Shown here: piece after piece, positions 2,587 through 64,000 of the stretch
Layout: each line of letters begins with the position of its first letter
Position numbering within the stretch: the stretch's first letter is position 1
Sequence record: MG748547
Direction: 5' to 3' (one strand)
Source: Escherichia phage EP75
Length of the DNA: 64,000 nt
Program-made: the position numbers and the translations under genes
The notes under the pieces: generated by a model
Database searches by the model: none
The model's input: the letters and a program-made list of their open reading frames with translations, nothing else
What the model was told of the DNA's origin: nothing

Positions 2587-2624
2587 GTTATAATACAGAG
2601 AGTTGAAACAGCAGGGAATAAATC

Positions 2625-3826: not shown

Positions 3827-3855
3827 ATACTCCATAATATTGGGGGAAATTAGTG

Positions 3856-5355
3856 ATGTCTGAGATCCAAATAGTCAAAGTGAACGAAGTTAGAATGCGG
3901 ATCCTTGCCGAGGATTATATCCGTGAAGAACTCAACGATTACTTCAAATTTGAAGATCCTAATTTCCAACCGAATCCGTTCAGTAAATGGGACGGCGTAG
4001 TGCGGTTGTTCACAAAGAGTTCTGGGCTTATCGACATCGGCCTGTTATTTGAGGTGTTCAAATTCTGTAAGATGAACGGTTACACCATCAAATTAGATCC
4101 GGCCTTAAAATATATTCAAGATATTCCGGATGAAGAAATTCATGCGTTCATCGATACATTGAATGCGGTGTACCGAGACGAAAACAAACAATATCAAAAA
4201 GCGATTGTCCGCGATTATCAATTTGATTCCGTTACCACAGCAATACGCCAAAGCAGATGTGTCCTCGAAGCTGCCACGAGTGCTGGCAAATCCTTTATTT
4301 TGTACATCATGGCGCGTTACTACAGGCAACGCAGAGATGCCCTCGAAAGTAATCTGAGGACGTTAATCGTTGTACCATCCATTCATTTGGTGACTCAGTT
4401 GTATGACAACTTCGAAGAATATAGCCACGGGACAGAATGGAAACCATTGATGAATGTCCAGACAATATACGAAGGGGCAACGAAAGAGATTTTCAAACCC
4501 ATAGTTATTTCAACTTGGCAAGGTATCCAGAACCAACCCAAAGAGTGGTTCCATCAATTTGGAGATATCGTCATCGACGAAGTACATACATCAAAATCAG
4601 ATAAATTGTCTTACATCTTGAACAACTGTATTAACGCTGATCAACGTTTGGGAGTAACCGGAACCCTGGCGAATACAAAGGTCGCGGGGTTACAAGTCGT
4701 TGCTCACTTTGGCGCATATCATAAAATTATTACAGCGCGCGATTTAATCGATCTAGGATATGCGGCAGACATCAATGTTAATATGATTGAAGTCATACAT
4801 CCTGTGGCAGACTGTATTGAAATGCACGGTGCTGAGTATCAAAAGGAAATAGAATTCCTCATTGCTAACGAACGCCGCAATGAATTGATAGCTCGAATGG
4901 CTCTGTCTTTGAAAGGGAACGTCGCAGTAATGTTCGAACGTATCGATGCACACATGATGTTGGTTTATGAAATGCTATCGGCAGTCAAGAAAAACGTATT
5001 CGTCATCAACGGGGAAGTCAAGACAGAAGTTCGTAAACAGATTCAGGCTGCTATGGAAGAAGGGGAAGATATAACACTGTTGGCATCATATGGTACTATG
5101 CAACAGGGCGTATCTATCAAAAAACTCCATCATCTGATATTGGCCCATCCCAGCAAATCTTATATCCGTGTTATACAGACATTGGGGCGTTTGATGCGCC
5201 AGCATTCCTCTAAGGATGTTGCGCGAATCTGGGACCTGGTAGACAACCTGCGTTACAACGGTTCCTACAACCATGCTCTCAGGCATTCTCATGAGAGATA
5301 TAAATTTTATCTTATGGAGCGCCACCCTGTTAAAATGAAAAAAGTGGCGCTCTAA
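3856..5355 (+). CDS. uvsW: UvsW-like SF2 DNA helicase
   Basis: 500 aa; Walker A AATSAGKS, DEVH box, TWQGIQNQPKEWF segment alignable to T4 UvsW; size matches T4 UvsW. Confidence 0.85.
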   Translation: MSEIQIVKVNEVRMRILAEDYIREELNDYFKFEDPNFQPNPFSKWDGVVRLFTKSSGLIDIGLLFEVFKFCKMNGYTIKLDPALKYIQDIPDEEIHAFIDTLNAVYRDENKQYQKAIVRDYQFDSVTTAIRQSRCVLEAATSAGKSFILYIMARYYRQRRDALESNLRTLIVVPSIHLVTQLYDNFEEYSHGTEWKPLMNVQTIYEGATKEIFKPIVISTWQGIQNQPKEWFHQFGDIVIDEVHTSKSDKLSYILNNCINADQRLGVTGTLANTKVAGLQVVAHFGAYHKIITARDLIDLGYAADINVNMIEVIHPVADCIEMHGAEYQKEIEFLIANERRNELIARMALSLKGNVAVMFERIDAHMMLVYEMLSAVKKNVFVINGEVKTEVRKQIQAAMEEGEDITLLASYGTMQQGVSIKKLHHLILAHPSKSYIRVIQTLGRLMRQHSSKDVARIWDLVDNLRYNGSYNHALRHSHERYKFYLMERHPVKMKKVAL

Positions 5356-5360
5356 CCATT

Positions 5361-5726
5361 TCAAATATCTTGATTCACATAGGCGGGGGTTGCCTCGCCT
5401 TCTTTGTTGGATCCAAATAAACAGTCGATCGTGCCAATACATTGTTGTAGCACTTTCGGCTCAAGAATCTGAGAAAACAATTCTTCATTAGATGCCAGCA
5501 GTGGAACAACTTTCACTTCCCGCGCCTGGCCTTGTTGAATAATGCCAACATACAGACCTTTGTTATTTGGGAGTAATGGTATCACCAACATCGGTGACAC
5601 AATAAACCCCGATGTACAGAAAAGGCTTTGTAAATAAACGCCTTTTAATGACGGACGTTGTTCTGCTATGGAAAGAATTACTTCTTGGTCTTTCCCTACT
5701 GCGTATAAACCAACAAATTGCTTCAT
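5361..5726 (-). CDS. hypothetical protein
   Basis: 121-aa ORF convergent with uvsW; GAGAAA SD-like sequence before ATG; no family recognised. Confidence 0.3.
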   Translation of the reverse strand: MKQFVGLYAVGKDQEVILSIAEQRPSLKGVYLQSLFCTSGFIVSPMLVIPLLPNNKGLYVGIIQQGQAREVKVVPLLASNEELFSQILEPKVLQQCIGTIDCLFGSNKEGEATPAYVNQDI

Positions 5727-5936
5727 ATATTATTTCTCACGTGTTAGCAAACTTGACTACATAATAATGTCATGCTCTGTTTAGACCAAATAAAATATTT
5801 TACTTGTTGAATAAAAATCGCTTTCTTGTTGAACAATCCGTGCGTAATATACGAGTTGTGAGCTTTGCGAGCAACGAGTATTATCACGAGCAAAGCGAGT
5901 AGACTGATAAAGAAAGGTTTTATTAAAACAGAATAT

Positions 5937-5944
5937 TATAAATG
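5937..5944 (+). promoter_or_regulatory. late-promoter-like box TATAAATG upstream of gene 45
   Basis: TATAAATG (1 mismatch to TATAAATA) followed by hairpin AAATGCC-GTCA-GGCATTT; about 120 nt upstream of gp45 ATG, so assignment is weak. Confidence 0.25.
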
Positions 5945-6065
5945 CCGTCAGGCATTTATTTATCGCGCGTAGGGCAATTTATCACTTGTTCTATAACTAC
6001 AAACACGCGATACTAATTTGCGTCAAATATGACTTGAACCCCACTATATTTTGAGGATACAACTA

Positions 6066-6734
6066 ATGCAAGAGATCACTCTTTCCGAACGCACTTTACA
6101 ACTGCTGGCTAACTTTGAAACCATCTGCCCCTCTATCGTTCTGGCACCTGGTAAAAAGTTGCGCACTGTTAACGATTCCAGTACAGTTATCGCTATTGCC
6201 GACATTGACGAAGACTTCCCGTTCGAATTCCCGATTCTGGATCTGACCAAATTGCTGGCAATCCAGCGTCTGCCGAGTTTTAAAGGTGGTAAAATTGAAA
6301 TGTCGGAAGACCACATTTTGCTGAAAGGTGAAAACTCCCAACTGCAATTCTGGCGTTCCGCTAAAGAACTGACTGTCGTTCCGGCAGACAGCATCGATCT
6401 TCCGTCTGTAGAATTTGAAGCAACAGTCACTCCTGAAAAAATGAAAGAGCTGACTCGCGCCTGTTCTACTCTGGGCCACAAAACTGTACGCCTGGTGGCC
6501 AGCGGCGGTAAAACTCGTCTGGTGGGCACGACCACTACTATCGACAATTCCAACGATTACACTGTTGAGTTGGGTGAAACAACTCTGGGTGATTTTGCTA
6601 TGCCTGTTGATGTGGTCAACCTGAAAATGATCGAAGGCAACTATGTGATCCGCGCCTGTGCCGAAATGCAACTGGTTAACTTCCAATCCGCAGATGGCAC
6701 CATCAACTATTACGTCGGCATGCAGCTGGATTAA
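6066..6734 (+). CDS. 45: sliding clamp (gp45-like)
   Basis: 222 aa; N-terminus LSERTLQLLANFETICPSIVL aligns with T4 gp45 N-terminus; size and position before clamp loader genes. Confidence 0.9.
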   Translation: MQEITLSERTLQLLANFETICPSIVLAPGKKLRTVNDSSTVIAIADIDEDFPFEFPILDLTKLLAIQRLPSFKGGKIEMSEDHILLKGENSQLQFWRSAKELTVVPADSIDLPSVEFEATVTPEKMKELTRACSTLGHKTVRLVASGGKTRLVGTTTTIDNSNDYTVELGETTLGDFAMPVDVVNLKMIEGNYVIRACAEMQLVNFQSADGTINYYVGMQLD

Positions 6735-6764
6735 TCAATAACGATTCGGCGCTTTATTATCGGT

Positions 6765-6796
6765 GGCGGGGTTTCCCCGCCCTTTGAAACGTTTTA
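6765..6796 (+). terminator. intrinsic terminator after gene 45
   Basis: GGCGGGG-TTT-CCCCGCC hairpin followed by T-rich tract. Confidence 0.5.
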
Positions 6797-6811
6797 TCTA
6801 AAGAGGCTGCA

Positions 6812-7801
6812 ATGTCTAACATCACTATCGTCACAGATCAATACGCGTGGGAAAACAAATATCGCCCTGACAATCTGGATGAGATCGTCCTCCCTTCAGA
6901 CGTCCGTGCAAAAATCCATGGCTATGTTACATCAGGCAATGGAAACATCCCCTCAATGCTGTTCTATTCCCCTCAGCCTGGTACGGGCAAGACTACTTCT
7001 GCTCTGGCTGTTTGCAACGAAATCGGTTGTATCAAACCGTTGATGATCAATGCGTCACTGGATAACAGCATTGATGTCATCCGTGACCGTGTTATTCAAT
7101 ACGCAACTGGCGTCAGTGTTTTCGGTGGCCGTAAAGTCGTTATCCTTGATGAAGTTGAGCGACTTTCTATGGCGGCACAGGAATCCCTGAAAGGCATCGT
7201 AGAGAAAGTCTCCAAAAACTGCTCCTTCATCCTGACGACTAATGCGAAACAGCGCGTTAACGAACCTCTGCGTTCCCGCTGTCGTGAAATTGATTTTATC
7301 TGGTCTGAAAAGGAAGCAGATGAAGTTAAACTTCAATTCATGCGTCGTTGCGCCACTATCCTGACGGAAGAAGGTATCCCATACGAAGCTGGTGTTATTG
7401 CATCGATTGTCAAATCTTATTTCCCTGACAACCGCAAGATTATGGGAACCCTTCAGGATAATGCCACCACGTTTGGTAAAATCGATGAACGTGCTTTGGC
7501 TCAGGTGAAAGCAGGTGAATTCCAGGCGCTGGTCGATTTCTTAAAGGCCAATGATTGGGCTGGCATGAAGCAATGGGTGACTGACAACCAAAACTATATT
7601 ACAGAGGACTTCTACTCTCGTTTCTTCCATTTCTGTGTCCCACAGAACAAAGAGAAGACTCCTTTGATTCAGAACGAATCTATCCCAGATTTGGTCTGCG
7701 TTTGTGGTCAGTCACAGATTGAACATCGTTCAGTTGGAGACGTCTGGTTACACGGCGTTTACTTCCTGACCAACGTCATGCTCAACATCAAGTGGAAGTG
7801 A
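6812..7801 (+). CDS. 44: clamp loader large subunit (gp44-like AAA+ ATPase)
   Basis: 329 aa; Walker A PQPGTGKTT, DEVE box, SRC motif; directly downstream of gene 45. Confidence 0.9.
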   Translation: MSNITIVTDQYAWENKYRPDNLDEIVLPSDVRAKIHGYVTSGNGNIPSMLFYSPQPGTGKTTSALAVCNEIGCIKPLMINASLDNSIDVIRDRVIQYATGVSVFGGRKVVILDEVERLSMAAQESLKGIVEKVSKNCSFILTTNAKQRVNEPLRSRCREIDFIWSEKEADEVKLQFMRRCATILTEEGIPYEAGVIASIVKSYFPDNRKIMGTLQDNATTFGKIDERALAQVKAGEFQALVDFLKANDWAGMKQWVTDNQNYITEDFYSRFFHFCVPQNKEKTPLIQNESIPDLVCVCGQSQIEHRSVGDVWLHGVYFLTNVMLNIKWK

Positions 7802-7805
7802 TATT

Positions 7806-8228
7806 ATGGCCGCTCCGTCACTGTTCGATTACCTGGGTGCTCTGAACAGCACCAAAGAGAATCTGTTGTTGACCGAAGACCCCGAAATCAGAAAGGCATT
7901 TGATCCTTTCATGACTCGGCGCGGCCTTGCCCAGAGTAAAGACACGTTGGTGGTTGCAGAACGAATGAACCACTTTCATGCCATTACTCCTTGGATGCAA
8001 TGGAACCTTGCGTTTCATAGCATTCCGGCGAAACGCCGTTATGATAAATGGTCTAAGAAAGGAGCCATGGACCCTGATGTAAAATTGATTTCCGAGTATT
8101 ACTACATCAGTCCTGAAAAGGCTTCTGAATATGTTCGATTCCTGCCGAAAGAAGTCCTGGCTGAAATCAAGGCGAAGGTCGAACGTTCTAACAGCAACGA
8201 AAAAGCTAAACCGCGCAAGGCTAAGTAA
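7806..8228 (+). CDS. 62: clamp loader small subunit (gp62-like)
   Basis: 140 aa, basic C-terminus; assigned by conserved position between 44 and regA; shorter than T4 gp62. Confidence 0.6.
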   Translation: MAAPSLFDYLGALNSTKENLLLTEDPEIRKAFDPFMTRRGLAQSKDTLVVAERMNHFHAITPWMQWNLAFHSIPAKRRYDKWSKKGAMDPDVKLISEYYYISPEKASEYVRFLPKEVLAEIKAKVERSNSNEKAKPRKAK

Positions 8229-8257
8229 TTCAAATTATTGTTAAAGGGGTACGAGTC

Positions 8258-8722
8258 ATGGCGCGTAATACGCTGGACATCTTGAAACTTTCAGCCGTTA
8301 ACGATGAGGCCAGCATCGTTGATTGTATGGTTGAAGTTCAATTAAACCAAGATAAACCAGGAATTTTTCTGGGTATCAAGGAAACTCTGAGCCGGATAGG
8401 GGTTAACACTCGTCAAGAGCCGAATACCCTGTATCAAACATGTCATATCCTGCATAAATTTGGCAGATATCACATCGTGCACTTCAAGCATCTTTTCATG
8501 CTGGATGGGCATTACAACGGCTTTACGCGTGAAGATGTCCTGCGTATGAATCGGATTATTCGGCTTTTGGAGCAGTGGAATATGGTTAAAATACTGCATC
8601 CGGAACAGATTACCGAAGTTGCTGATATGTCTCGAATCAAAGTTGTAAAACATGACCAAGTTTCTGATTGGAAACTGGTTCCAAAATATACCATCCGCCC
8701 GAGTCGGGCAAAAAGCGAATAA
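8258..8722 (+). CDS. regA: RegA translational repressor
   Basis: Segment LYQTCHILHKFGRYHIVHFKHLFMLDG ... WKLVPKYTI aligns with T4 RegA; N-terminal extension of about 30 aa relative to T4; strong SD AAAGGGG. Confidence 0.85.
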   Translation: MARNTLDILKLSAVNDEASIVDCMVEVQLNQDKPGIFLGIKETLSRIGVNTRQEPNTLYQTCHILHKFGRYHIVHFKHLFMLDGHYNGFTREDVLRMNRIIRLLEQWNMVKILHPEQITEVADMSRIKVVKHDQVSDWKLVPKYTIRPSRAKSE

Positions 8723-8738
8723 CTGGAGTCGCTATATT

Positions 8739-9602
8739 ATGACAACTACATTTAATAAAAACGTGAGACTGAATCTGGCTTTTGGTAATGCTGCAGGGGA
8801 CGTGACCGCCCCCGACTTTAGCAAAATTCGCAATCAGGCAAAACTCGTTCTGGAAGAAACTAAAGAACTTCTGGAAGCGGCGTTCTTTGATCATCAAGTG
8901 GTTCTAACATTAGAATTGAACCCTTGTGAAAGTGAGATCCCAACCACTATCGAAGACCGCATGAAAGCCATCATGGATGCCCAGGGTGATATCACTACTG
9001 TCAACGACGGCGTGGCGCATATCGCGGGTTTTAATGGTGATGAGTGCTTACAGCGCGTGTTTGCCTCCAACATGAGCAAGTTTATCCGCTCTGAAGATGA
9101 AGTCGGTCCGGCTCTGGACTATTACTATTCTCGCGGTTTCCCTGATGGGCAATTGCGCGTGGAAGGCGAATTCCCTCAGGCGTGCATCAAAGTTAATGAA
9201 ACTGTTGTTTGGAATGGCAAAGAATATCCTAAAGGAAAATTCCTTAAAAACATGGCCGTTTTCCAAGAGCCTGATTTTTCTGACATGCTGACTAAAACTC
9301 CTTCCCGTCAGATCAACGATATCGTTGCCAGCATGGCGATTGAAGAAGGCCAGGTGTTTATCGATGATCTCAATGGTGTGGCGTTGGTATCCCCGAACAC
9401 ATTGGGTGTAATTCTTTCCATGGCTGTTGAAAAAACTTCTCAACCTGTAGAGATCGACGGGCAAATTGAAAGCTATGTGCCCGCGTTCATCGTGGATGAT
9501 ACCAATATGCCTAAGCTGTGTGGGGTGTGGGGTTCTAATGTTCGTGTTTATGCGAGCACTCCAGTGCAGAACACGGTAACACACCTTTCCCGTATTGATT
9601 AA
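8739..9602 (+). CDS. hypothetical protein (287 aa)
   Basis: ATG at 8739 in frame with ORF 8652..9602; EETKELLEA motif weakly reminiscent of all-alpha NTP pyrophosphatases; occupies the slot where T4 carries gene 43. Confidence 0.45.
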   Translation: MTTTFNKNVRLNLAFGNAAGDVTAPDFSKIRNQAKLVLEETKELLEAAFFDHQVVLTLELNPCESEIPTTIEDRMKAIMDAQGDITTVNDGVAHIAGFNGDECLQRVFASNMSKFIRSEDEVGPALDYYYSRGFPDGQLRVEGEFPQACIKVNETVVWNGKEYPKGKFLKNMAVFQEPDFSDMLTKTPSRQINDIVASMAIEEGQVFIDDLNGVALVSPNTLGVILSMAVEKTSQPVEIDGQIESYVPAFIVDDTNMPKLCGVWGSNVRVYASTPVQNTVTHLSRID

Positions 9603-9626
9603 TATAAACCGTTATTCATTAAACAA

Positions 9627-9652
9627 CAGAGGCTATAATGGCCTCTGTTTTT
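9627..9652 (+). terminator. intrinsic terminator
   Basis: CAGAGGC-TATAATG-GCCTCTG hairpin followed by TTTTT. Confidence 0.6.
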
Positions 9653-9671
9653 GTATTCTAGAGAGGATACC

Positions 9672-10898
9672 ATGAAAGATAAACCGTGTGACATTCCTTA
9701 TTGCGGTGTTCGAGAAGCCAAAATTAAATCTGCACATCCCATGTTAAGTCCATTTCATAAACAACTCGCATACGAATGGATGAGTGAGCGCTATAAGATC
9801 CACGTGAGAAAGGACGTACAGCGTCTTCCTGCTCCTTGGACGGATAATCCCATACTACGGCAGGTCAAGTTCTGCAACGTCCGGAGAGAGCACGACAGGC
9901 AGTCTCTTAACCTGATCAACAATATCGTCAAGAACGACGCTCTGAGCATGGCTGACAAGATGTTCAATTGTGTTCTGTTTCGCATGTTCAATCTCTGGGA
10001 CCCGATCAAGGTGGCGCTCGAGGGTGCTATGACGATTTCAGACTTCGCTAAAATCAACCTCGACGAGACCCGCGCCCGTCTTCAGAAGTTTGAATCAGAA
10101 GGTGGTAAGATATTCACCAATGCATTCAACACAGGTGGTCTAAAACAATGCCTGGCGTTCCCTGAACTTGTTGTCAACCACAAGGAGCAGCGCTTTGGTG
10201 GTATGATGGTTAAGGTACACCGTGTTGGTCAGGGTATCGTTGATGAATTGGATTACAAGGTCGCCAAGAAGCTGGTTGAAGAGAATCCTGGGGAGTACAC
10301 GATCGAGGGCTGGGAGCCGTACATGCCGATGCGTGTTATCCGTTCCCTGAAGGCATTTGTCAACAAGTATCCTGATTACTTCAATGATCTTTTACGTCTT
10401 GACTCTCCGATGAAAGTCTACCAGCGCATGTATGAAGACATTGAAGGGCTTGGACCATTCCTGGCTTATCAGATCTGGGTAGACTTCACGTACATCCCTG
10501 AATATCCATTCAGCGAGAACCATTTCACTATCGCTGGCCCAGGTTGTCGCGCGGGTATTGACCTGATGTTCCTGGATAAGGACGGCATGACTCATGAAGA
10601 ATGCATCTTCTGGGTTCGAGATCACCAGTATCAATTGTTTGCCCAGTATGGTTATGTCCAAGAGCAGTTCTGGTCAGCCGAAGCACCGGAAGATCAGTGC
10701 ATGAATGTCATGCAGCTGGAGAATATGTTCTGTGAATTGAGCAAGTACACCCGCTGTGTGCAGGCTGTTGAGAGAGGGGAAAAGCCCCGTGGCAAGGTCG
10801 GTTACGATGGAGGCGGGGAATACAAAAAGCGGTGCGATGAAGTTGTCCTCAATCGCGGATCGGTCAATTTGTTAGATCGTTTGAAGAAACCTGAATAA
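9672..10898 (+). CDS. hypothetical protein (408 aa), no family recognised
   Basis: ATG at 9672 with GAGAGGA SD; conserved-looking stretches FCNVRREHDRQS and GPGCRAGID; C-terminal Cys cluster. Confidence 0.5.
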   Translation: MKDKPCDIPYCGVREAKIKSAHPMLSPFHKQLAYEWMSERYKIHVRKDVQRLPAPWTDNPILRQVKFCNVRREHDRQSLNLINNIVKNDALSMADKMFNCVLFRMFNLWDPIKVALEGAMTISDFAKINLDETRARLQKFESEGGKIFTNAFNTGGLKQCLAFPELVVNHKEQRFGGMMVKVHRVGQGIVDELDYKVAKKLVEENPGEYTIEGWEPYMPMRVIRSLKAFVNKYPDYFNDLLRLDSPMKVYQRMYEDIEGLGPFLAYQIWVDFTYIPEYPFSENHFTIAGPGCRAGIDLMFLDKDGMTHEECIFWVRDHQYQLFAQYGYVQEQFWSAEAPEDQCMNVMQLENMFCELSKYTRCVQAVERGEKPRGKVGYDGGGEYKKRCDEVVLNRGSVNLLDRLKKPE

Positions 10899-11010: not shown

Positions 11011-13032
11011 ATGGCAGAATTTAAACCTTTCGCAACGGCTGTTAATGATAACGTGCTGGCGATGTCCGCAACTGGTCTGTTCATGACCAACGTTGATAAA
11101 GATGCTCTGTGGGATTTGTATTTGGCATCCTTCCCAGCTGGTACCAACCCGATGTACCGCGAACGCACTGAACACGACTGCACCTGCTGTAAACAATTCA
11201 TCCGTAATATCGGCGGCGTTGTGACTATCGATGCTGACCTGAACGTTATCTCGATTTGGGACAACATTGAGTTGGGTAACGAATACGACGTGGTCGCTGC
11301 GGCGCTGTCGACCTTCGTTAAACAACACGCAATCGTCGACGTGTATTTTAACGATTCTGCTAAAGTCGGCCTGTCTCATAACCACGAATCTGGTGTAGAC
11401 GGTAAAATCCGCACGTATAACCATTTCCATACCGAACTGCTCGGCAGCTATGTCCTGCGTTCTGATGCTATCGCATCTAAAAAAGGTGAAATCCGTCAGG
11501 CTATCGAATTATTTGAACGCGGTCTGCGTGAAATTACTCTGGAATCAGCAGAAATCGTTCTGGAATTGATTGATCAGAATTCTTTGTATCGCGGTGCTGA
11601 ACATAAAGCTGCGGTGATGGGCTTCGTAGTAGCCAAGACGGCATATGAAGAAATCCCAGAATCTAACCGTTCTCTGTGGGCATGGCGCACTGGTTATCGT
11701 TCAAACAATCATGTTCCACATGGCATTCGCAACACCGTTATCGGTACTCTGTTGACTGATATCAGTGAAGGCGTGGAACTGGAAAAGGCCGTTAAGTCGT
11801 TTGAAACCAAAGTTGCCCCAGCGAACTACAAACGCCCGACGGCTCTGGTCTCCAAGTCCATGATCGAAAACGCTCAGAAAGAAGTGATTGCTCTCGGTCT
11901 GGAAGATTCGCTGGCGCGTCGTTATGCAGTTTATGACGACCTGACGATCAATAACGTTCTGTTTGCAGACCTGGCTGCTCAAAAAGCGATGGATCCATTC
12001 GCTCAACTGGCCGCCGAAGTGAAAACGCCGACCAAGTCGCTGGATAAAGTTGAAGAGATCGGCATTGACGACTTCCTGAGCAATATCCTGCCGAAAGCGC
12101 ATTCAATGGAAGTGCTGGTTGAAAACTCGCATACAGGAAACCTGATGTCTCTGGTCGCTCCGGCTATCGCAGGTGCTCCTAACCTTTTCAAATGGGGCAA
12201 CGGTTTCTCATGGTCATACAACGGCGAAGTGACCGACTCCATCAAAGAGCGTGTGAAAGCGGCTGGTGGTAAAGTCGACGGGTTCCTCCGTGTGTCTTTG
12301 GCTTGGCACAACAACGATGACCTCGACCTGCATATGTTCTTTAACAATATGGAACATGTGTACTTCCGCGATCGTCGTTCAATGACTGGTGCTCATCTCG
12401 ATATCGACATGAACGGTATGGACGGCATCGACCCGAACCGCTCTCCGGTAGAAAACATCATCTTCACTGATGAAAGAAAGTTGCGTGACGGTGAATATCG
12501 TTTTGAGATTCACAACTACAACCAACGTGAAAAGATCGACGAAGGGTTTGAAATTGAAGTTGAATACAAAGGCACTACGCAACGTTTCAGCCACAATGGG
12601 TTAAAAGACCAGGGGCGCATCACTGCCGTCGTTCTGACTGTTAAAGACAAACAAGTCGTTAGCATCAAGTCCGAGCTGGCGAATGTTGATAAATCCAAAG
12701 AAATTTGGGGCATTAAGACAGCGACCTTCCAGAAGGTACAACTGGTCCTGAACTCACCGAACCATTGGGATGGTGAACAAACTGGCAACAAGCACGTCTT
12801 CTTCATCCTGGAAGGTTGTGCAAATCCTGAAGGTACTCGTGGTTTCTACAACGAATATCTGAAGCCGGAACTGGATAAACATCGTAAGGTTTTTGAAATG
12901 CTGGGTAGTAAAATGAAAGTACAGCCCAACGAAAACCAACTGTCTGGTCTGGGGTTCTCAACGACGCAACGCAATCATGTGTTCATCAAAGTGTCCGGTG
13001 CGTTTAACCGTACTGTAAAAGTCATTTTCTAA
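11011..13032 (+). CDS. large hypothetical protein (673 aa)
   Basis: AGGAAG SD; no Walker A and no polymerase motifs; AAGGKVDGF...NDDLDLH stretch loosely resembles G[GS]...DxD nucleotidyltransferase or KxDG ligase motifs. Confidence 0.55.
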   Translation: MAEFKPFATAVNDNVLAMSATGLFMTNVDKDALWDLYLASFPAGTNPMYRERTEHDCTCCKQFIRNIGGVVTIDADLNVISIWDNIELGNEYDVVAAALSTFVKQHAIVDVYFNDSAKVGLSHNHESGVDGKIRTYNHFHTELLGSYVLRSDAIASKKGEIRQAIELFERGLREITLESAEIVLELIDQNSLYRGAEHKAAVMGFVVAKTAYEEIPESNRSLWAWRTGYRSNNHVPHGIRNTVIGTLLTDISEGVELEKAVKSFETKVAPANYKRPTALVSKSMIENAQKEVIALGLEDSLARRYAVYDDLTINNVLFADLAAQKAMDPFAQLAAEVKTPTKSLDKVEEIGIDDFLSNILPKAHSMEVLVENSHTGNLMSLVAPAIAGAPNLFKWGNGFSWSYNGEVTDSIKERVKAAGGKVDGFLRVSLAWHNNDDLDLHMFFNNMEHVYFRDRRSMTGAHLDIDMNGMDGIDPNRSPVENIIFTDERKLRDGEYRFEIHNYNQREKIDEGFEIEVEYKGTTQRFSHNGLKDQGRITAVVLTVKDKQVVSIKSELANVDKSKEIWGIKTATFQKVQLVLNSPNHWDGEQTGNKHVFFILEGCANPEGTRGFYNEYLKPELDKHRKVFEMLGSKMKVQPNENQLSGLGFSTTQRNHVFIKVSGAFNRTVKVIF

Positions 13033-13883: not shown

Positions 13884-14756
13884 ATGACAACTCGTACTGG
13901 CATCAAACTCACTCCTGAAGTCCTGAAGTCACATATCGCTGAGGTGATTTACGAAGACCGCGAAGTCGGCGGTCACCGGGCTATCACTTGTCATTTCAAG
14001 ATGGATAACGGCTTCGTCGTTCACGGCACCAAGCCCAGCACATCCATAGACCCGGCCAACTTCGATGAAGCCCTGGGCAAAGAGATTTCCTACAATAACA
14101 CCTTCGACCAGCTGTGGCAGCTGGAGGCGTACCGGGCGCTTGTTGAACAAGATCTGTTGGCCAAAGCCACGGAAACGGCAGAGATCCGGATCGATCAATA
14201 CGCTGTTGAACGTAGCGCCCTCTGTCCGGCCTATCACCTCGGCTTCAATGTGATGATTCAGGACGTGATGTTCAGAGCGGAAAATGGCGAGCGCTTCTTG
14301 GCGTCTTTCGTTTGTGGGCCGGATGACATGGAACTTGTTGTTGACTCTCACAACGCCAAATCTCGTAAGGCTGTTAGTGATTTCCTGTGCGCCAACTCCA
14401 AACTCGATCTCACTTATTCGCCATTGGTTCTGCGCATCGCCAAGATTTGTCATGAAGCCAACCGCGCATACTGCAAGTCTGTTGGTGACGACTCTCAACT
14501 GCCTTGGGAACAATCTCCGGCCTGGCAGCGTGAGAGCGCTTGCAAAGGTGTTATCTTCCATCTCACTGGTGATCGTAAGCCCAGCGAATCGCATGAGAGC
14601 TGGATGGCGGAGAAGGAGGCTGAGGGATGGGTGTATGGCCCAGTCAAAGACCCTCAGACCAAGCAACACCCTTGCATGGTTCCGTATGGAGAACTCCCGG
14701 TACAACAACGCTCCAAAGATTATATTTTCAAATCCATTGTAGACTCCTTTAAATAA
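13884..14756 (+). CDS. Gp49-like N-terminal domain fused to RyR domain protein
   Basis: N-terminus ITCHFKMDNGFVVHG...NFDEALGKEI...WQLEAY matches phage Gp49/Sf6 gene-66 family pattern; C-terminus WMAEKEAEGWVYGPVKDPQTKQHPCMVPYGELP matches RyR domain signature. Confidence 0.55.
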   Translation: MTTRTGIKLTPEVLKSHIAEVIYEDREVGGHRAITCHFKMDNGFVVHGTKPSTSIDPANFDEALGKEISYNNTFDQLWQLEAYRALVEQDLLAKATETAEIRIDQYAVERSALCPAYHLGFNVMIQDVMFRAENGERFLASFVCGPDDMELVVDSHNAKSRKAVSDFLCANSKLDLTYSPLVLRIAKICHEANRAYCKSVGDDSQLPWEQSPAWQRESACKGVIFHLTGDRKPSESHESWMAEKEAEGWVYGPVKDPQTKQHPCMVPYGELPVQQRSKDYIFKSIVDSFK

Positions 14757-14905: not shown

Positions 14906-15082
14906 ATGACCGACAACAAATTAAAACGCGCCGGACTTGATTGTCTTGACAATTCATTCCGTCCCAGTGATGTTCTGGTCGCCCAAATGGAAAACAACCG
15001 GGATTTCATTGAAACTATGCTGGAGAACGCCGACGCGAACTCCAAACACTCCAAAGCCCAAAAAGGTCAAAACGATGATTGA
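14906..15082 (+). CDS. small hypothetical protein (58 aa)
   Basis: ATG at 14906; stop overlaps the vWA gene start (ATGATTGA), suggesting translational coupling. Confidence 0.3.
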   Translation: MTDNKLKRAGLDCLDNSFRPSDVLVAQMENNRDFIETMLENADANSKHSKAQKGQNDD

Positions 15083-17291
15083 ATCATTAACATTTAAGAA
15101 TGCGGTTGCGACTGTCGCGCCGTCTAACCATGTAATCGTTGTGGATATCTCCGGTTCCATGTATCGTTCACTTCCAGAAGTTCGTAAGCATCTGAAGGAG
15201 AACCTGCCTTCCCTGGTGAAACCGGAAGATACTGTGAGCATCCTTTACTTTTCATCTCGCGGTGATTTCGGAACGGTATTTGCCGGACGTCAGATTAACA
15301 GTGCAACTGATCTCACTGAGATCAATAATCTAATTGACCGCTTCCTGCAACCGTCGGGATGTACGGGATTTGTAGAACCTCTGAAATTGGCTGCTGAAAC
15401 CGCGTTGAGTCTGAACAAACCTGGTTATGTCAATAACCTGGCGTTCATGACCGACGGTTATGACAACTGCTGGCGCTCTAATGAAATTCTGGCAGCAGCT
15501 GAAGTACTGCCCAAAGCGTTTGATAACATTACCTTCATCGAATACGGTTGGTATTGTAATCGCGAACTGCTGGCTCTGATGTCCGAGCGTTCTGGCGCGA
15601 CCCACGTGTTTGCCGAAGGTCAGACTGAATATCAGACCGAACTGGAAAACGTACTGAAATCATCTACGCCGAAAGTGGTTGTTGATGTTCCCCTGGTTTA
15701 CACTCATGCCATCTACGTTGAAAACGGCGTGGCAACTGTGCTAGCCATACAGCCAGATGAAGAACACCCGATTGGCCACGTGAGCATTCCTGAAAGCGTT
15801 TCTCAGCTGTGGGTTGTAAACCCCAACATGATCGACCAGCTGGACAATCTGGCCGACATCCAGGCGGCATACGTGCTGGCATTTTATGGCGTGTATACCA
15901 TGGATGCCGATCTGGTTTGGGCTGCGCTGAAGAAGACAGGCGACGTCCGCTTCATCAAACAATACAGCAACTGTTTCACCAAGCAGGACTATTCCAACAT
16001 CAAAGTCGACCTGACCCAGGCTATCGTGGATGAAACTCTGCGCGGCGTAGATGGTATCGATTACAACATGGTTCCAGCTGAAGATGCGACGACCATTGTT
16101 GATGTCTTGACCTATCTGGCCGAAGCCGACGTCTCTGTTGTCACTAAGCATCCGTTGTTCTCTTACAACAGCATCGGTCGCGGAACTGTGCAGAAAGTTG
16201 ATGACACAGAAGACAAGCTGGCTGAACAAATCGCCGAAGCCAAAACCAAAGCAGAGCGTAAAGCGCTGGCTCTTAAACTGGCCGAGCACGAAGATTGGAC
16301 GCCGGAATTTACTCCGGTTGACGACAAAGGGATTGTCCCAATTAGCAATCTGGTCTACAATTCAGAGCGCCCTAACATCAGCATTCAGACCGTTCAGCAC
16401 GGGACGGTTGTTGTGCCGGAGTTCGTACAGAAGAAATATGAACTTCCTGAAGAACTGGGAACCTGGCGTTATCGTAATTACACCATCGTCAAAGATGGCA
16501 TCATCAACCTGAAGACGATGCCGATTACTGCTGAATCTCCGATTGTCCGAGCTAAGGTTGTCCAAGATTTGACCGCCATGGGCGTTAATGTGTTTGGTGG
16601 TCCGGAAATCTTTATCGTTAATTTAGAAAGCGTTCCAATGGTCAACCGCGCCATGACCAAGAATATCAGTGCTGCCGAATTCTTCGCCGACAACGTTCGT
16701 CGCGAAGCGCTGAAGGCAAAACAGAAAGTTCTGAAATTCTATCGTGATGAACTGGTTGGCAAAGGTAATGCAACAGGCCTGGCGTCTAAATATGGTAAAG
16801 AAGCCGCCGATTTCTTGTCAGCAAATGGCATTCGTGACTACGGGTTCTCACCGAAAACTACTTCTGTGGAATCAACCGACGTCTACATGAGTCGTGAACT
16901 GAACGTGAAAATCAAAGGTGCTTCGTCGCTGCCGAGTATTGCGTCTGTTGTTAAAAAGCAAGCAGACGGTAAAAAACTGAATGTCGCTGATCAGTTGATT
17001 GCTAATGCTCTGGCCGAATACAACGCTTTTGTTAAATCTCCAATGATCACCAGCGTACCTGAAGAGACTCAGAAAAAGCTGATTGAAAGTTGGATTGGCG
17101 ACGCAGCAAAAGCAGCCATCAACGAAGTCCGCGCCCTGAACAAAACGCTGTCTAAAGTAGTTTACGGCATCGTCGCTGGTCATGGTTGGTTCACTGATTT
17201 GGATCTGGAAGAGTCTACGATGGATGTAGAAGTTGATGGGGTGAAATACACCGTCACTGCCGAACTGGCCGAAAAAGAAATCAAGATCTAA
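15075..17291 (+). CDS. von Willebrand factor type A (vWA) domain protein, 739 aa
   Basis: ATG at 15075 (MIESLTF); complete MIDAS motif VVDISGSM plus downstream MTDGYDN; long C-terminal region of unknown function. Confidence 0.7.
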   Translation: MIESLTFKNAVATVAPSNHVIVVDISGSMYRSLPEVRKHLKENLPSLVKPEDTVSILYFSSRGDFGTVFAGRQINSATDLTEINNLIDRFLQPSGCTGFVEPLKLAAETALSLNKPGYVNNLAFMTDGYDNCWRSNEILAAAEVLPKAFDNITFIEYGWYCNRELLALMSERSGATHVFAEGQTEYQTELENVLKSSTPKVVVDVPLVYTHAIYVENGVATVLAIQPDEEHPIGHVSIPESVSQLWVVNPNMIDQLDNLADIQAAYVLAFYGVYTMDADLVWAALKKTGDVRFIKQYSNCFTKQDYSNIKVDLTQAIVDETLRGVDGIDYNMVPAEDATTIVDVLTYLAEADVSVVTKHPLFSYNSIGRGTVQKVDDTEDKLAEQIAEAKTKAERKALALKLAEHEDWTPEFTPVDDKGIVPISNLVYNSERPNISIQTVQHGTVVVPEFVQKKYELPEELGTWRYRNYTIVKDGIINLKTMPITAESPIVRAKVVQDLTAMGVNVFGGPEIFIVNLESVPMVNRAMTKNISAAEFFADNVRREALKAKQKVLKFYRDELVGKGNATGLASKYGKEAADFLSANGIRDYGFSPKTTSVESTDVYMSRELNVKIKGASSLPSIASVVKKQADGKKLNVADQLIANALAEYNAFVKSPMITSVPEETQKKLIESWIGDAAKAAINEVRALNKTLSKVVYGIVAGHGWFTDLDLEESTMDVEVDGVKYTVTAELAEKEIKI

Positions 17292-58896: not shown

Positions 58897-58928
58897 TAGA
58901 TGAAGGGGCTGCTATAATAGCAGCTCCT
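58897..58928 (+). terminator. hairpin, terminator candidate
   Basis: GCTGCTA-TAA-TAGCAGC hairpin followed by TCCTTTTGTTTATT. Confidence 0.4.
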
Positions 58929-58948
58929 TTTGTTTATTGGAGCACACC

Positions 58949-59620
58949 ATGTCGTATTCGCTCAAAGGGTTGTTGAAGCGCCCTGTTCATCTGTTTGTAA
59001 AACCACCCGCTGTTGAAGGGGAATATCCGGCACGAGGAGAGTTGTATTACGTTAAAGGCTCCAACGGTAGCGGCAAGTCCACTGTCCCTTCCTATCTGGC
59101 GGAGAATGATCCTCAGGCATATGTCGTGGCCCGCGATAGCAAGATCATGCTCACGGTTTGCCCTTCTTATAACATTATCTGTATCGGTAAATATGACAAG
59201 TCTAAGTCTAAAGGTGTTGATTCCCTGAAAGACACCGAGCAGATGTTGTTCGCCTTGTCCATTGCGGACCAACCAGAATATCTGAAATACGACGTGATAT
59301 TTGAAGGCATCATCCCTTCAACTCTTCTCAGTTCATGGATTCCCCGCCTGACGCGCCCACCACGAGAATTGGTCGTCCTCTTCATGGATACCCCTCTTGA
59401 AACATGTATTGCCCGTGTGAAATCACGCAATGGCGGCGCAGAGTTCAATGAAAGCCTGGTGGTCGAAAAGTGGGAGAGAGTTCATGACCACCGCCAACGG
59501 CATAAAGGCTTGTTCCCTACCGTTCCCGCAGGTATGATGAAGTCTCACGGTCTAACAGTAGACCAAGCTGTAATGGCATTCCTCTGTCGTGATTTTGGGA
59601 GTATTGATTGTGGAAATTAA
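58949..59620 (+). CDS. P-loop kinase, polynucleotide-kinase-like
   Basis: YVKGSNGSGKSTVPSYLAENDPQAYVVARD parallels T4 Pnk kinase N-terminus (GCPGSGKST ... NP..Y ... RD); no phosphatase domain; second P-loop kinase next to a gene-1-type dNMP kinase. Confidence 0.55.
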   Translation: MSYSLKGLLKRPVHLFVKPPAVEGEYPARGELYYVKGSNGSGKSTVPSYLAENDPQAYVVARDSKIMLTVCPSYNIICIGKYDKSKSKGVDSLKDTEQMLFALSIADQPEYLKYDVIFEGIIPSTLLSSWIPRLTRPPRELVVLFMDTPLETCIARVKSRNGGAEFNESLVVEKWERVHDHRQRHKGLFPTVPAGMMKSHGLTVDQAVMAFLCRDFGSIDCGN

Positions 59621-60656
59621 AGCAATAAACAACAACGACATGCTGAAACAGGCTGTCTTGGCTATCCGTGAGCACGGGATTGAATCTGATCCAGGTAACG
59701 CGGAGATCAACACCGACGGCACCCGCTTCCTCGATGGTGTGACTATTACCGTCAGTGATATTCGCGACCGCTGGCTTTCCGTTGAAGGTCGCAACTCATC
59801 AGCAATAGCAGCCATCGGCGAAACCTTCTGGGTGCTGTCGGGGCGCGATGATGTTCGCTTCCTTTCTCGTGTGTTACCCCGCGCCGCTAACTTCTCCGAT
59901 AATGGCCACACGTGGCGAGCCGCCTATGGACCACGCCTGTATGCCCATGGCCAGCTGGATAGCGTCATCAACCGCCTGCGCAAGAATCCTAACACGCGCC
60001 AGGCATACCTCACCATCTATGATCCGGCTCTAGACTCAGATTTTGGTCTGGCGAAGTTCAGCCTGAGTGGTGAAGCGAAGACCAAAGACATGGTATGCAA
60101 CCTGGCCCTGCTATTCGCTATCGTTGAAGGTCGCTTGAACCTGACAGTCATCAACCGATCGCAGGATGTTCTCTGGGGTATGAGTTCAATCAACTTCATT
60201 GAGTTCTCTATCCTTCAGGAAGTGATTGCTCAGGTGCTGGATGTTGACGTCGGCCAGTACAAGCTCTTCTCTAACAATCTTCATTACTACAACAATGAAA
60301 TGAGCCAGAAGCAGCTCGGTAAGATCACGAAGGAAACCAAAGTGGAAGCCGGGTTCATCAACTCGTTGATCTACTTCAAGAACGTGACCAACCAGAACCA
60401 TATCCGTGATCTATTCACTGGTGTTCTTCATCACTGTGATATTGGTAGCCCGTGGGAAACTGTCGTCGCCCATCTTAAGAAATACGACGCTGATCGCGGC
60501 CTGATACCACAGATGGCATACTGCTTGTACTGCAAACTGAACGACTACAAGATCAACATGGACATGATCCAAGACCACGGGTTGAACGCAGCACTGCAAC
60601 ATTCACCTGTTGACCGCAAGATCATTGACCCCAAGTTCCTGGAAGGTGTGGTATGA
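59610..60656 (+). CDS. 42: thymidylate-synthase-family pyrimidine hydroxymethylase (gene-42-like)
   Basis: NTRQAYLTIYDP, DMVCNLA (candidate catalytic Cys) and INRSQDVLWGMSSINFIEF align with T4 dCMP hydroxymethylase/TS core; about 100-aa C-terminal extension; GTG 59610 (GGGAG SD) or ATG 59640. Confidence 0.75.
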   Translation: MEIKAINNNDMLKQAVLAIREHGIESDPGNAEINTDGTRFLDGVTITVSDIRDRWLSVEGRNSSAIAAIGETFWVLSGRDDVRFLSRVLPRAANFSDNGHTWRAAYGPRLYAHGQLDSVINRLRKNPNTRQAYLTIYDPALDSDFGLAKFSLSGEAKTKDMVCNLALLFAIVEGRLNLTVINRSQDVLWGMSSINFIEFSILQEVIAQVLDVDVGQYKLFSNNLHYYNNEMSQKQLGKITKETKVEAGFINSLIYFKNVTNQNHIRDLFTGVLHHCDIGSPWETVVAHLKKYDADRGLIPQMAYCLYCKLNDYKINMDMIQDHGLNAALQHSPVDRKIIDPKFLEGVV

Positions 60657-61222
60657 TGTACCCGAACCTTGAATTCTTCACGGGGCGCAAGCGCTCCGGT
60701 AAGGACTTCTGTTTGGAGTCCCTGATCAGTTTTCATCATATTCAGGGTGATATGGATATTCGTCGTCTGTCTTTCTCGGATGAACTACGACGTGTCGCTA
60801 ATTTCATCTATCCATGGCTACCAGCGGAGGTGGAGGATGCTGTGAAGGACGTTCCCTTCGTACACCCTGATAACCCCAAGGGCTTATCCCCGCGCCAAAT
60901 CTGGCTTCATCTGGGCAGCGATACGGGCTTGCGTTATGTACAGCCAGACCTGTTCCTGTCATTCTTTAAACGATATCAACTTCCTTTGGTTGAACAGAAC
61001 CCCAATGTTCATTATATCGTGAGTGATTTGCGTACTCCTCAGGAATATGAATGGGCGCTGAGCACTAAATGTCCTATCACCCGCATTTCAAAGGCGGATC
61101 GTGGTGGTATCATAGAGGATGACATAGAGGCTTTCATTGATAAGATGGAAGTTGATTATGAATTTGTCAATCCGTTTGAAGGTTGGCAACCGTTCGTCAA
61201 ATTTTATAGGGATCGGAAATGA
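60653..61222 (+). CDS. 1: dNMP kinase (gene-1-like)
   Basis: FFTGRKRSGKDF parallels T4 gp1 FLSGVKRSGKDT; ATGA overlap with hydroxymethylase. Confidence 0.7.
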   Translation: MMYPNLEFFTGRKRSGKDFCLESLISFHHIQGDMDIRRLSFSDELRRVANFIYPWLPAEVEDAVKDVPFVHPDNPKGLSPRQIWLHLGSDTGLRYVQPDLFLSFFKRYQLPLVEQNPNVHYIVSDLRTPQEYEWALSTKCPITRISKADRGGIIEDDIEAFIDKMEVDYEFVNPFEGWQPFVKFYRDRK

Positions 61223-61773
61223 TCACAGCAGAGCATATTAAAAGTCTGCTCGAACTTCAAAAGGCCACCAACGTGGCCTACTTTGGGGAAGAGTGGAAGA
61301 ATGTATGGAGTCATAACGCCGTCGTCAACTCCATATATCGTGAGTGGGCAGAGTTTCTTGATGAAACGACTGCTGACTGGAAGGTTTATGGAAACGACAT
61401 CGGGTTTAACCATGCGAACGCAGTCTATGAACTGGTGGACGTGGTTCACTTCATGCTGTGCTTCGTCCTGTTGGACCGTACCAAAGGCGAGATCGAAGAA
61501 GAATTCGAAATCCTCAGTGGTCGCGAATTCACCTTATTTGCTTCGATTGCTGTCGGACATCGAGGTGTGACGTATCGCCTTGGGCAATTCATGAACGATC
61601 CTTGCGTCGAGACTCTCATGTTCTTCCTGTCGGATGCTTGCTTTTACATGGAGATTGACATTGAGACCTACATGCTGGCACACAAACGCAAAAATGATCG
61701 CAATCGGCTGCGTGCTGCTGGTGGCGCGAACTACGATAAGTCCGCAGAAACCCCTCTGACCCTGGAGTTCTAA
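61219..61773 (+). CDS. all-alpha NTP pyrophosphatase (gene-56 dCTPase/MazG-like)
   Basis: AVYELVDVVHFMLCF resembles the T4 gp56/MazG helix; ATGA overlap; substrate cannot be inferred. Confidence 0.55.
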   Translation: MITAEHIKSLLELQKATNVAYFGEEWKNVWSHNAVVNSIYREWAEFLDETTADWKVYGNDIGFNHANAVYELVDVVHFMLCFVLLDRTKGEIEEEFEILSGREFTLFASIAVGHRGVTYRLGQFMNDPCVETLMFFLSDACFYMEIDIETYMLAHKRKNDRNRLRAAGGANYDKSAETPLTLEF

Positions 61774-62303
61774 TGTTTACAGTTGTCGTATCATATTATG
61801 CGGAACATGCCCCGCACATGGCAGAGAACTTCGCTGAGTTTATTAAACCAGGCGGTCATGTCGTTATTGCGACCAATTTCAAGAAAGAGCCAGATGGTGC
61901 GGCTACTGTAACACAACACATTACAACCAAAGAGCCGGAAACACTTTTTAAACGCATTGAGGATTTTGCTTTTGGCGGGGAAGAAATTCCAGAGTCATTA
62001 CAGCATATCTATTTTGAAGATGCGATATATTATATTCATGCTATACCAAAGGATGTTACGACCGAACAACTAATGTATGTTTTGAATATTGCGTTAAATT
62101 TATCGTGCGTCAACAGGGCACAGCATAATCGTTTGCGCAATATGTATTTAACAGAACGCGGGGGTTCCGAAATTAACGATGAAAAACTCCCGTCAATAAT
62201 GGCGATTCACGAAGCAATCAATATATTGTCCAAGAAAGTCTTGGGCACCGATTTATTAATTACGATCAACAAGCAAGAGGAAACGAAATGGCCGATTCAT
62301 TGA
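61773..62303 (+). CDS. hypothetical protein
   Basis: 176 aa, in the position where T4 carries the beta-glucosyltransferase gene; no glycosyltransferase motifs recognised. Confidence 0.45.
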   Translation: MFTVVVSYYAEHAPHMAENFAEFIKPGGHVVIATNFKKEPDGAATVTQHITTKEPETLFKRIEDFAFGGEEIPESLQHIYFEDAIYYIHAIPKDVTTEQLMYVLNIALNLSCVNRAQHNRLRNMYLTERGGSEINDEKLPSIMAIHEAINILSKKVLGTDLLITINKQEETKWPIH

Positions 62304-63373: not shown

Positions 63374-63680
63374 TATTGCAGGGGGAGGAGACTCCCCCGT
63401 TAATTACAAAATCATCGACCCTGGTTCTGATCAGTTAGCAATAATCGAAATAACGGAAGGCAAATTCCGTGGCGTTCAATTTCGTATAGGGAAAGTGGGT
63501 GTCCATTTAGATAATGGAGAGCCTCGGTTATCCTTTACAACAGATATATTGAAGAAACCATGGCGTTTGTTATTTGTTAATTTGAAAGAAAATGACTTGT
63601 TCACTGTGGTGTCTGGGGATATCTTAGTTGATCTGATACAGCAAAATGCTCAGGATTACAACAAAATTTTGGTGGGGTAG
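63351..63680 (+). CDS. hypothetical protein in gene-40 position
   Basis: 109 aa between uvsX and 41 as T4 gene 40; overlaps uvsX 3' end by 23 nt; no sequence-level support. Confidence 0.4.
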   Translation: MSSKQPSNIAGGGDSPVNYKIIDPGSDQLAIIEITEGKFRGVQFRIGKVGVHLDNGEPRLSFTTDILKKPWRLLFVNLKENDLFTVVSGDILVDLIQQNAQDYNKILVG

Positions 63681-63686
63681 TTGCCA

Positions 63687-64000
63687 ATGTTACTCGAATC
63701 TGTCGTGCTTTCCCAATTAATCTATAACGAAGAATATCAAAGAAAGATCCAGCCGTATTTGAAAGCCGATTATTTCGATAACGAAGGCGAGAAAATTATA
63801 TTCGGTCTCATTGACCATTACACTTGCGAATATAATGCTCGTCCTTCGGTTGAAGCGTTGTCTATTATGCTGGAAAAGACTTCGCTCAACGAACACGTAT
63901 TTGAACAAGCTATTTCTGCTCTTGAGAATATCAATGACAACACATTCCATCAGGAATGGCTTGTAAAAGAAACAGAAAGTTGGGCGCGGCAGAAAGCTGT
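63687..64000 (+). CDS. 41: replicative DNA helicase (gp41-like), 5' partial, continues beyond window
   Basis: MLLESVVLSQLIYNEEYQRKIQPYLKADYF ... HQEWLVKETESWARQKA aligns with T4 gp41 N-terminus; ORF open to end of window. Confidence 0.85.
   Translation, partial: MLLESVVLSQLIYNEEYQRKIQPYLKADYFDNEGEKIIFGLIDHYTCEYNARPSVEALSIMLEKTSLNEHVFEQAISALENINDNTFHQEWLVKETESWARQKA

Follow-up and report, generated by a model that had tools for sequence, protein, structure and literature searches.

Layout of the operon

A stretch of 64,000 nucleotides from Escherichia phage EP75 (sequence record MG748547), referred to here in its whole length as the window, holds at positions 58949 to 62303 a string of five genes that a first-pass annotation had read as a pyrimidine-modification set. 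The list of open reading frames (ORFs) contains all five on the plus strand at the positions which that annotation had assigned to them. Together with the elements that flank them, the genes are as follows (Marshall is a Salmonella phage, and 5-hmdU stands for 5-hydroxymethyl-deoxyuridine):

58902..58930, plus strand: intrinsic-terminator-like hairpin with a 13-bp stem and a T-rich tail, closing the upstream gene
58949..59620, plus strand: P-loop kinase of 223 aa, predicted 5-hmdU DNA kinase (5-HMUDK); ORF list and PF18748
59610..60656, plus strand: protein of the thymidylate synthase (TS) superfamily, 348 aa, predicted dUMP hydroxymethyltransferase (HMT); GTG start, as in Marshall
60653..61222, plus strand: deoxynucleoside monophosphate (dNMP) kinase, 189 aa; PHROG 139
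61219..61773, plus strand: all-alpha nucleoside triphosphate (NTP) pyrophosphatase of the dimeric-dUTPase family, 184 aa; PF08761 and PHROG 173
61773..62303, plus strand: protein with an ACT-like fold, 176 aa; PF24021
62288..63373, plus strand: UvsX/RecA-like recombinase (PF00154, PF21134, PHROG 97), a downstream neighbour and not a modification gene

Successive genes in this string overlap by 1-23 nt, forming a single tight operon. At its 5' boundary the terminator is followed by a GGAG ribosome-binding site and by the kinase ATG at 58949, and the annotation of Marshall also places a terminator at the equivalent position upstream of its kinase. A longer version of the TS homologue opens at 59589, while the GTG at 59610 leaves an 11-nt overlap with the end of the kinase gene. 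The gene for the ACT-like protein is translationally coupled between those for the pyrophosphatase and UvsX, and uvsX itself is followed by a 109-aa ORF and then a DnaB/gp41-type helicase. Promoter-like sites were no more frequent in the region than in shuffled sequence, and hence no promoter is claimed.

Matches to the 3.5-kb region occur in 271 phage records, of which almost all belong to Ackermannviridae. The best match was found to be Marshall (genus Kuttervirus), at 96.6% identity over 92% of the query, with most others at about 88%. The gene order kinase - TS homologue - dnk - dUTPase - orf62 - uvsX is identical in phage ViI (Vi01) and in Marshall. In the annotated ViI genome the counterpart of the window runs in reverse orientation at roughly 34-98 kb. 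At the protein level, the hydroxymethylase and the dNMP kinase are 100% identical to those of Marshall, the ACT-like protein 97% and the kinase 96%, with lower values for UvsX (72.5%) and the pyrophosphatase (67%). The source phage is evidently a Kuttervirus-like member of Ackermannviridae and a mosaic relative of Marshall. Mosaic breakpoints are visible at uvsX and in the pyrophosphatase gene, where the central segment (residues ~50-150; 61470-61663 of the window) is replaced with respect to Marshall. At 63680-63687, between the 109-aa ORF and the helicase, the flanks join directly, and the HNH homing endonuclease present in this gap in Marshall is absent.

The predicted DNA kinase and the thymidylate synthase homologue

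The kinase aligns with PF18748 (HMUDK_HMUD1, 5-hmdU DNA kinase) over profile positions 1-195 of 196 (E=8.7e-114) at 378 bits (cut-off 27), and a Walker A motif (GSNGSGKST) can be read from the translation at residues 37-45. Its identity to ViI gp67 (Vi01_061c, YP_004327432) is 94% over 220 residues, and the neighbours are syntenic. ViI gp67 has been shown biochemically to act on 5-hmdU within DNA, producing the 5-phosphomethyl form at the expense of ATP, with release of ADP (PMC8989533). Weak scores were also obtained with generic P-loop kinase families and with the PHROG polynucleotide-kinase family, and an NCBIfam search gave no match. The first-pass term, a polynucleotide-kinase-like enzyme, is thus fair as a distant description, but the match to the 5-hmdU DNA kinase family is specific and full-length. 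Family membership being unambiguous, we assign the product as a predicted 5-hmdU DNA kinase orthologous to ViI gp67. An assignment to gp243, the second kinase paralogue of ViI, was considered and rejected, as the identity is 23% (BLASTP E=0.004) compared with 94% to gp67.

Orthologues of this kinase are widely mislabelled in GenBank/RefSeq as 'terminase small subunit' or 'baseplate hub'. The terminase label sits on PHROG 800 and has been carried over to ViI Vi01_061c, Marshall_146, SFP10 and many others. The true small terminase of ViI is a separate protein, Vi01_162c, encoded next to its large terminase.

The TS homologue belongs to PHROG 3676 (E=8.5e-182) and matches PF00303 over the catalytic core only (residues 74-242, E=3.8e-16). 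Against the NCBIfam thymidylate-synthase equivalog models it scored approximately 56 bits where the cut-offs are approximately 327, failing every one of them, and it is therefore not an ordinary ThyA. Its best sequence match in the PDB is the CMP hydroxymethylase MilA of Streptomyces rimofaciens (5jnh/5b6d; E=1e-16, with an overall identity of about 20%). An AlphaFold model built with 43 homologues reached a pLDDT of 93.4. In the comparison of this model with solved structures, the entries were 32.8 and 303 of 318 for MilA, ~22 and ~235 for thymidylate synthases, and 18.1 and 212 for T4 dCMP hydroxymethylase, making MilA the closest solved structure both by sequence and by fold.

The C-terminal extension of about 100 aa that had been noticed at the outset is real. 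The protein has 348 aa compared with 246 aa for T4 gp42, with 121 residues following the conserved His-x-Tyr motif, and AlphaFold confidently predicts a helical C-terminal domain at residues ~250-345 (helices at 262-336). MilA possesses an extra five-helix C-terminal domain that is absent from TS and from the T4 dCMP hydroxymethylase (PMC5175136). The extension is thus a hallmark of the MilA-like subfamily and no oddity.

The structural work on MilA also provides rules for substrate choice (PMC5175136). With respect to the base, cytosine-specific enzymes carry an Asp (Asp186 in MilA, Asp179 in T4), whereas TS and dUMP hydroxymethylases, which are specific for uracil, carry an Asn. With respect to the sugar, a preference for ribose goes with Lys133'/Ala176 (MilA numbering) and a preference for deoxyribose with Arg/Ser. 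Mapping by HMMER alignment located the catalytic set of the TS homologue (Glu71, the nucleophile Cys163, His225 and Tyr227) together with Arg130, Arg183 and Ser184. Arg130 and Ser184 align with MilA Lys133' and Ala176 and are of the deoxyribose type. The specificity loop reads G-M-S-S-I-N-F and contains no acidic residue, so that the Asp found at the base-specificity position of T4 gp42 has no counterpart. HMMER places Asn195 of this loop opposite the TS Asn; the residue is invariant in all 43 homologues, and only I, V or A occurs at the preceding position, 194, a pattern of the uracil type. In the place of the Lys133'/Ala176/Asp186 set of MilA, which selects ribose and cytosine, the TS homologue thus presents Arg130/Ser184/Asn195, the combination for deoxyribose and uracil.

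A similar enzyme, gp230, is encoded by Delftia phage PhiW-14, whose DNA contains alpha-putrescinylthymine. It has 357 aa, is also C-terminally extended, shares 41% identity over the core as well as the same S-I-N loop, and is a deoxyuridylate hydroxymethyltransferase by annotation. BLASTP of the TS homologue against T4 gp42 was not significant (E=0.33). The Asn/Arg/Ser signature, the likeness to the PhiW-14 HMT and the lack of similarity to gp42 together argue for a dUMP rather than a T4-type dCMP hydroxymethylase, and this is what we predict from the sequence.

Two observations concern the wider family. Ala, the ribose-type residue of MilA, occupies position 184 in 7 of the 43 aligned homologues, which hints that part of the hydroxymethylase family may act on substrates other than dUMP. 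Many metagenomic relatives are 490-590 aa long, a length that suggests possible fusions to another domain.

A T4-like cytosine pathway, in which a dCMP hydroxymethylase and a gp56-like dCTPase would yield DNA with bare 5-hydroxymethylcytosine (hmC), was weighed against the dUMP assignment. In its favour, the nearest solved structure by either measure is the cytosine-specific MilA, and the gene order is a distant echo of that in T4 (42 - beta-gt - segA - uvsX - 40 - 41). The pyrophosphatase, which is grouped with gp56 in one all-alpha superfamily, may be counted on the same side. We nevertheless give this pathway next to no credence. The uracil and deoxyribose signature speaks against it, and virion DNA of ViI-like phages contains ordinary dC alongside a thymidine derivative of 301 Da (PMC5889632); the earlier suggestion of hmC without glucose is thereby excluded.

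An operon for ordinary nucleotide metabolism, without DNA modification and consisting of a genuine thymidylate synthase, a dUTPase and either a generic kinase or a small terminase, is what the annotation in most GenBank records implies, and it would be in keeping with the database labels 'thymidylate synthase' and 'terminase small subunit'. This we consider very improbable. The terminase label stems from PHROG 800, but the protein is a full-length PF18748 member and ViI has its small terminase elsewhere. The TS homologue falls short of the NCBIfam cut-offs for thymidylate synthase, and its MilA-type helical domain replaces the C-terminal lid of TS. Moreover, modified DNA has been demonstrated chemically in relatives (PMC5889632). 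The earlier interpretation, that a P-loop kinase adjoining a TS-family hydroxymethylase indicates a 5-HMUDK and a hypermodified pyrimidine, is borne out by the PF18748 match, the 94% identity to gp67 and the synteny with ViI.

Nucleotide-pool enzymes, the ORF before uvsX and the gp160 homologue

The dNMP kinase matches the PHROG 139 family of that name (E=7e-48). Similarity to T4 gp1 was detected by BLASTP (E=0.003), with a G-x-KRSGKD P-loop and YIV-x-D-x-R motifs in common. Phmmer against the PDB did not match the gp1 structure, giving only a non-significant dTMP kinase match (E=0.64), no T4-like phage was among the tblastn matches, and an NCBIfam search found nothing. Of the earlier description as a gene-1-type dNMP kinase, the family stands, but the likeness to T4 gene 1 is at the level of motifs. 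Homologues were found in Ackermannviridae, in Vibrio and Aeromonas phages, and in PhiW-14, where the corresponding gp231 (29% identity) adjoins the dUMP HMT.

The product of 61219-61773 was correctly anticipated to be an NTPase: it is an all-alpha NTP pyrophosphatase, matching PF08761 above its gathering score (32.8 versus 22.9 bits, E=1e-7) over profile positions 2-159 of 162. PHROG 173 was also matched, as was the Campylobacter dUTPase 1w2y in the PDB (E=1e-3), and the identity to PhiW-14 gp232 is 31%.

The 176-aa protein occupies the slot in which T4 has its beta-glucosyltransferase, and the earlier statement that no glucosyltransferase is found there holds. It matches PF24021, 'Phage ACT-like domain', with E=1.3e-88, and its fold consists of an ACT-like beta-alpha-beta-beta-alpha-beta domain plus helices. 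It has no similarity to T4 beta-gt, and neither the length of about 350 aa nor the sequence or fold of a GT-B glycosyltransferase is present. A PDB sequence search gave chance matches only and an NCBIfam search no match. No glycosyltransferase was found among the 30 window proteins scanned against Pfam, a set that left out some small ORFs. Only nine homologue clusters of the ACT-like protein were found, those with names coming from Ackermannviridae phages.

The position before uvsX is filled by small ORFs that are unrelated from lineage to lineage, namely 204 aa in Vibrio phage K471, 76 aa in PhiW-14 and the 176-aa ACT-like protein here. An hhalign comparison of the ACT-like family with the positionally equivalent 204-aa protein of K471 revealed no similarity, indicating that the content of the slot is not conserved. 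As PhiW-14 and K471 carry the extended module with unrelated small ORFs, a glucosyltransferase is not to be expected in this slot.

Two further genes, one associated with hypermodification and the other possibly so, are found near the other end of the window:

8652..9602 (likely start near 8739), plus strand: MazG-like pyrophosphatase; PHROG 2144, E=3e-131
9672..10898, plus strand: homologue of ViI gp160, aGPT-Pplase clade 1, Pfam 'HMUDK_hel'; PF18723, E=2e-83

The gp160 homologue is encoded 48 kb from the cluster, on its upstream side; it shares 94% identity with ViI Vi01_130c (orf00160) and supplies the clade-1 aGPT-Pplase of a ViI-type pathway. In ViI, gp160 was among the five proteins of the lysate reconstitution (PMC5889632). 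The MazG-like protein is encoded directly upstream, and its ViI counterpart, Vi01_131c, is annotated as MazG-like; a Pfam scan of the 8652-9602 product gave no match, nor did NCBIfam searches of either protein. It is possible that the MazG-like protein acts as a second nucleotide-pool sanitiser, for example as a dTTPase, adjacency being its only link to the pathway.

Adjoining the gp160 homologue is a single 673-aa ORF (11011-13032) with a full-length match to PHROG 1735. The ViI annotation has two coding sequences at this place, Vi01_129c and Vi01_128c, the probable cause being a frameshift in ViI or an annotation that splits the gene. Also nearby, and unrelated to modification, are a product with a Phage_gp49_66 domain and a RyR domain (13884-14756) and a 784-aa product with a von Willebrand factor A domain (14937-17291).

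A probable ViI-type route to hypermodified thymidine

Taken together, the region is very probably the known ViI-type operon of Ackermannviridae that makes hydroxymethyluracil DNA and starts its hypermodification. Before replication, the TS homologue would turn dUMP into 5-hmdUMP with methylene-tetrahydrofolate. The gp1-like dNMP kinase is expected, by analogy, to convert 5-hmdUMP to 5-hmdUDP, and host nucleoside diphosphate kinase would complete the route to 5-hmdUTP. The pyrophosphatase presumably acts on dUTP, and possibly on dTTP, a role in dUTP/dTTP clearance and dUMP supply for which the SPO1 and PhiW-14 pathways offer the analogy (PMC8989533); the resulting monophosphate would feed the hydroxymethylase, and unwanted nucleotides would be kept from the DNA. 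Phage polymerase would then incorporate 5-hmdU instead of T. After replication, the kinase encoded at 58949-59620 would phosphorylate the hydroxymethyl group of 5-hmdU in DNA, giving 5-phosphomethyl-dU. ViI gp247 transfers serine and gp226 decarboxylates it (PMC8989533), and corresponding steps are proposed here: gp247 (aGPT-Pplase2) would swap the phosphate for serine via the side-chain oxygen, through a Cys-C6 Michael adduct, and gp226, a pyridoxal phosphate (PLP) enzyme, would decarboxylate the serine adduct to 5-(2-aminoethoxy)methyl-dU (5-NeOmdU). In ViI, CBA120, CBA6 and 1.255.O, 5-NeOmdU replaces ~40% of T (PMC5889632), and by analogy 5-NeOmdU on ~40% of T is the expected product here.

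In the case of the ACT-like protein, it is conceivable, though unlikely, that it forms a small-molecule-sensing subunit tuning the hmdUTP or hypermodification pathway (in response to serine, folate or a nucleotide, for example). Together with the gp160-type aGPT-Pplase1, such a subunit might help to explain why only ~40% of T is hypermodified and the remainder becomes plain T.

A tblastn search of the 64-kb window with ViI gp226, gp243 and gp247 returned noise only (best E>=0.2). This absence is expected, as the three genes lie at 140-152 kb in ViI, outside the span syntenic with the window. Homologues of gp226 and gp247 were found in 345 and 375 phage records, respectively, mostly of the same genera as the kinase matches, and are at least 85% identical across enterobacterial Ackermannviridae. 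Marshall is listed for gp226 only, its protein being 99.5% identical to that of ViI. A 2024 review describes the modification genes as conserved across Ackermannviridae and the modification as characteristic of the family (PMC11721090), and Marshall was placed in the ViI-like 5-HMUDK group in Table 1 of the original report (PMC5889632). From these relatives we infer that the source phage would carry the three genes and make the same base as ViI.

Tblastn also gave matches to gp247 and gp226 at the left end (~1500-2740) of four Mycobacterium phage genomes, those of Bane2, Magpie, Frederick and Vincenzo. They are weak but significant (25-29% identity, E 1e-9 to 1e-12) and suggest that these mycobacteriophages may carry a related pair of enzymes for amino-acid-to-DNA tailoring.

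The same hmdU pathway and DNA kinase could in principle lead to a final adduct other than 5-NeOmdU. Whether a phage with a 5-HMUDK makes an N-C, O-C or C-C adduct is set by its tailoring enzymes (PMC5889632), the tailoring genes are outside the window, and the locus is mosaic (hydroxymethylase 76% identical to ViI; NTP pyrophosphatase 67% and UvsX 72.5% identical to Marshall). However, the strong conservation of gp226 and gp247 across enterobacterial Ackermannviridae, the near-identity of Marshall gp226 to that of ViI, and the finding of an identical 301-Da nucleoside in four ViI-like phages, one Vibrio phage included (PMC5889632), render a different adduct improbable.

A number of points weigh against assignment to the ViI-type pathway with 5-NeOmdU as its product. 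The MilA and T4 alignments place their Asp at Ile194, beside a one-residue gap; as the alignments differ in register by one residue within a loop that bears a one-residue insertion, the structural equivalence of Asn195 is inferred, albeit strongly. The TS homologue is only 76% identical to the ViI hydroxymethylase, the activity of which was itself inferred, not assayed, in the cited ViI papers (PMC5889632, PMC8989533). The pyrophosphatase allele is mosaic (67% identity to Marshall), and the substrates attributed to it and to the dNMP kinase are presumed ones. Since the three enzymes of the final chemistry (gp247, gp226 and gp243) are not in the window, the end product is extrapolated from relatives. 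Finally, ~60% of T is unmodified in ViI DNA, and the conversion of 5-hmdU to thymidine in hypermodifying phages is called unknown in the published work.

Comparison with known systems places the operon closest to that of ViI, with kinship at the family and genus level: the gene order is shared, and identities are 94% for both the kinase and the gp160 homologue and 97.9% for the dNMP kinase, in addition to the 76% of the hydroxymethylase. It differs in that the hydroxymethylase is a Marshall-type allele (100% Marshall, 76% ViI) and in the divergence of UvsX and of the central part of the pyrophosphatase.

PhiW-14 has the order dUMP HMT - dNMP kinase - dUTP diphosphatase - small ORF - UvsX (locus positions 1931-5463), and also uses a 5-HMUDK (gp37) and an aGPT-Pplase (PMC8989533). 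In contrast to the present operon, its 5-HMUDK gene is not beside that for the HMT, its adduct is putrescine attached via an N-C bond, and the slot ORF has 76 aa. In K471 (4974-9686), the order HMT - dNMP kinase - dUTPase-like - small ORF - UvsX recurs with the 5-HMUDK adjacent, and the module thereby extends to marine Vibrio phages.

With T4 the operon has in common a general plan in which a hydroxymethylase of the TS family, together with a dNMP kinase and an NTP pyrophosphatase, supplies a pool of modified dNTPs, as well as the gp1-like P-loop motifs and a remnant synteny (hydroxymethylase ... uvsX - small ORF - gp41-type helicase). T4 differs in having a cytosine instead of a uracil signature, in the lack of similarity of gp42 and beta-gt to the proteins encoded here, and in glucosylating its DNA where a post-replicative DNA kinase and amino-acid transfer are proposed for this phage. 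The T4 frame adopted by the first-pass annotation therefore captured a genuine distant synteny, but glucosyltransferases are not to be expected in a phage of Ackermannviridae.

The system is already known, its pathway, enzymes and base having been published in 2018 and 2021 with Marshall included (PMC5889632, PMC8989533). The analysis therefore adds no new biology, and shows that a thymidine-hypermodification locus is recognisable from raw sequence. Its practical value lies in annotation: for the hydroxymethylase the label 'thymidylate synthase' is still in wide use, as are 'baseplate hub' and 'terminase small subunit' for the kinase. Many restriction enzymes are blocked by 5-NeOmdU (PMC5889632, PMC11721090), and users of this phage in therapy, cloning or sequencing should be prepared for DNA that is partly modified and resists restriction.

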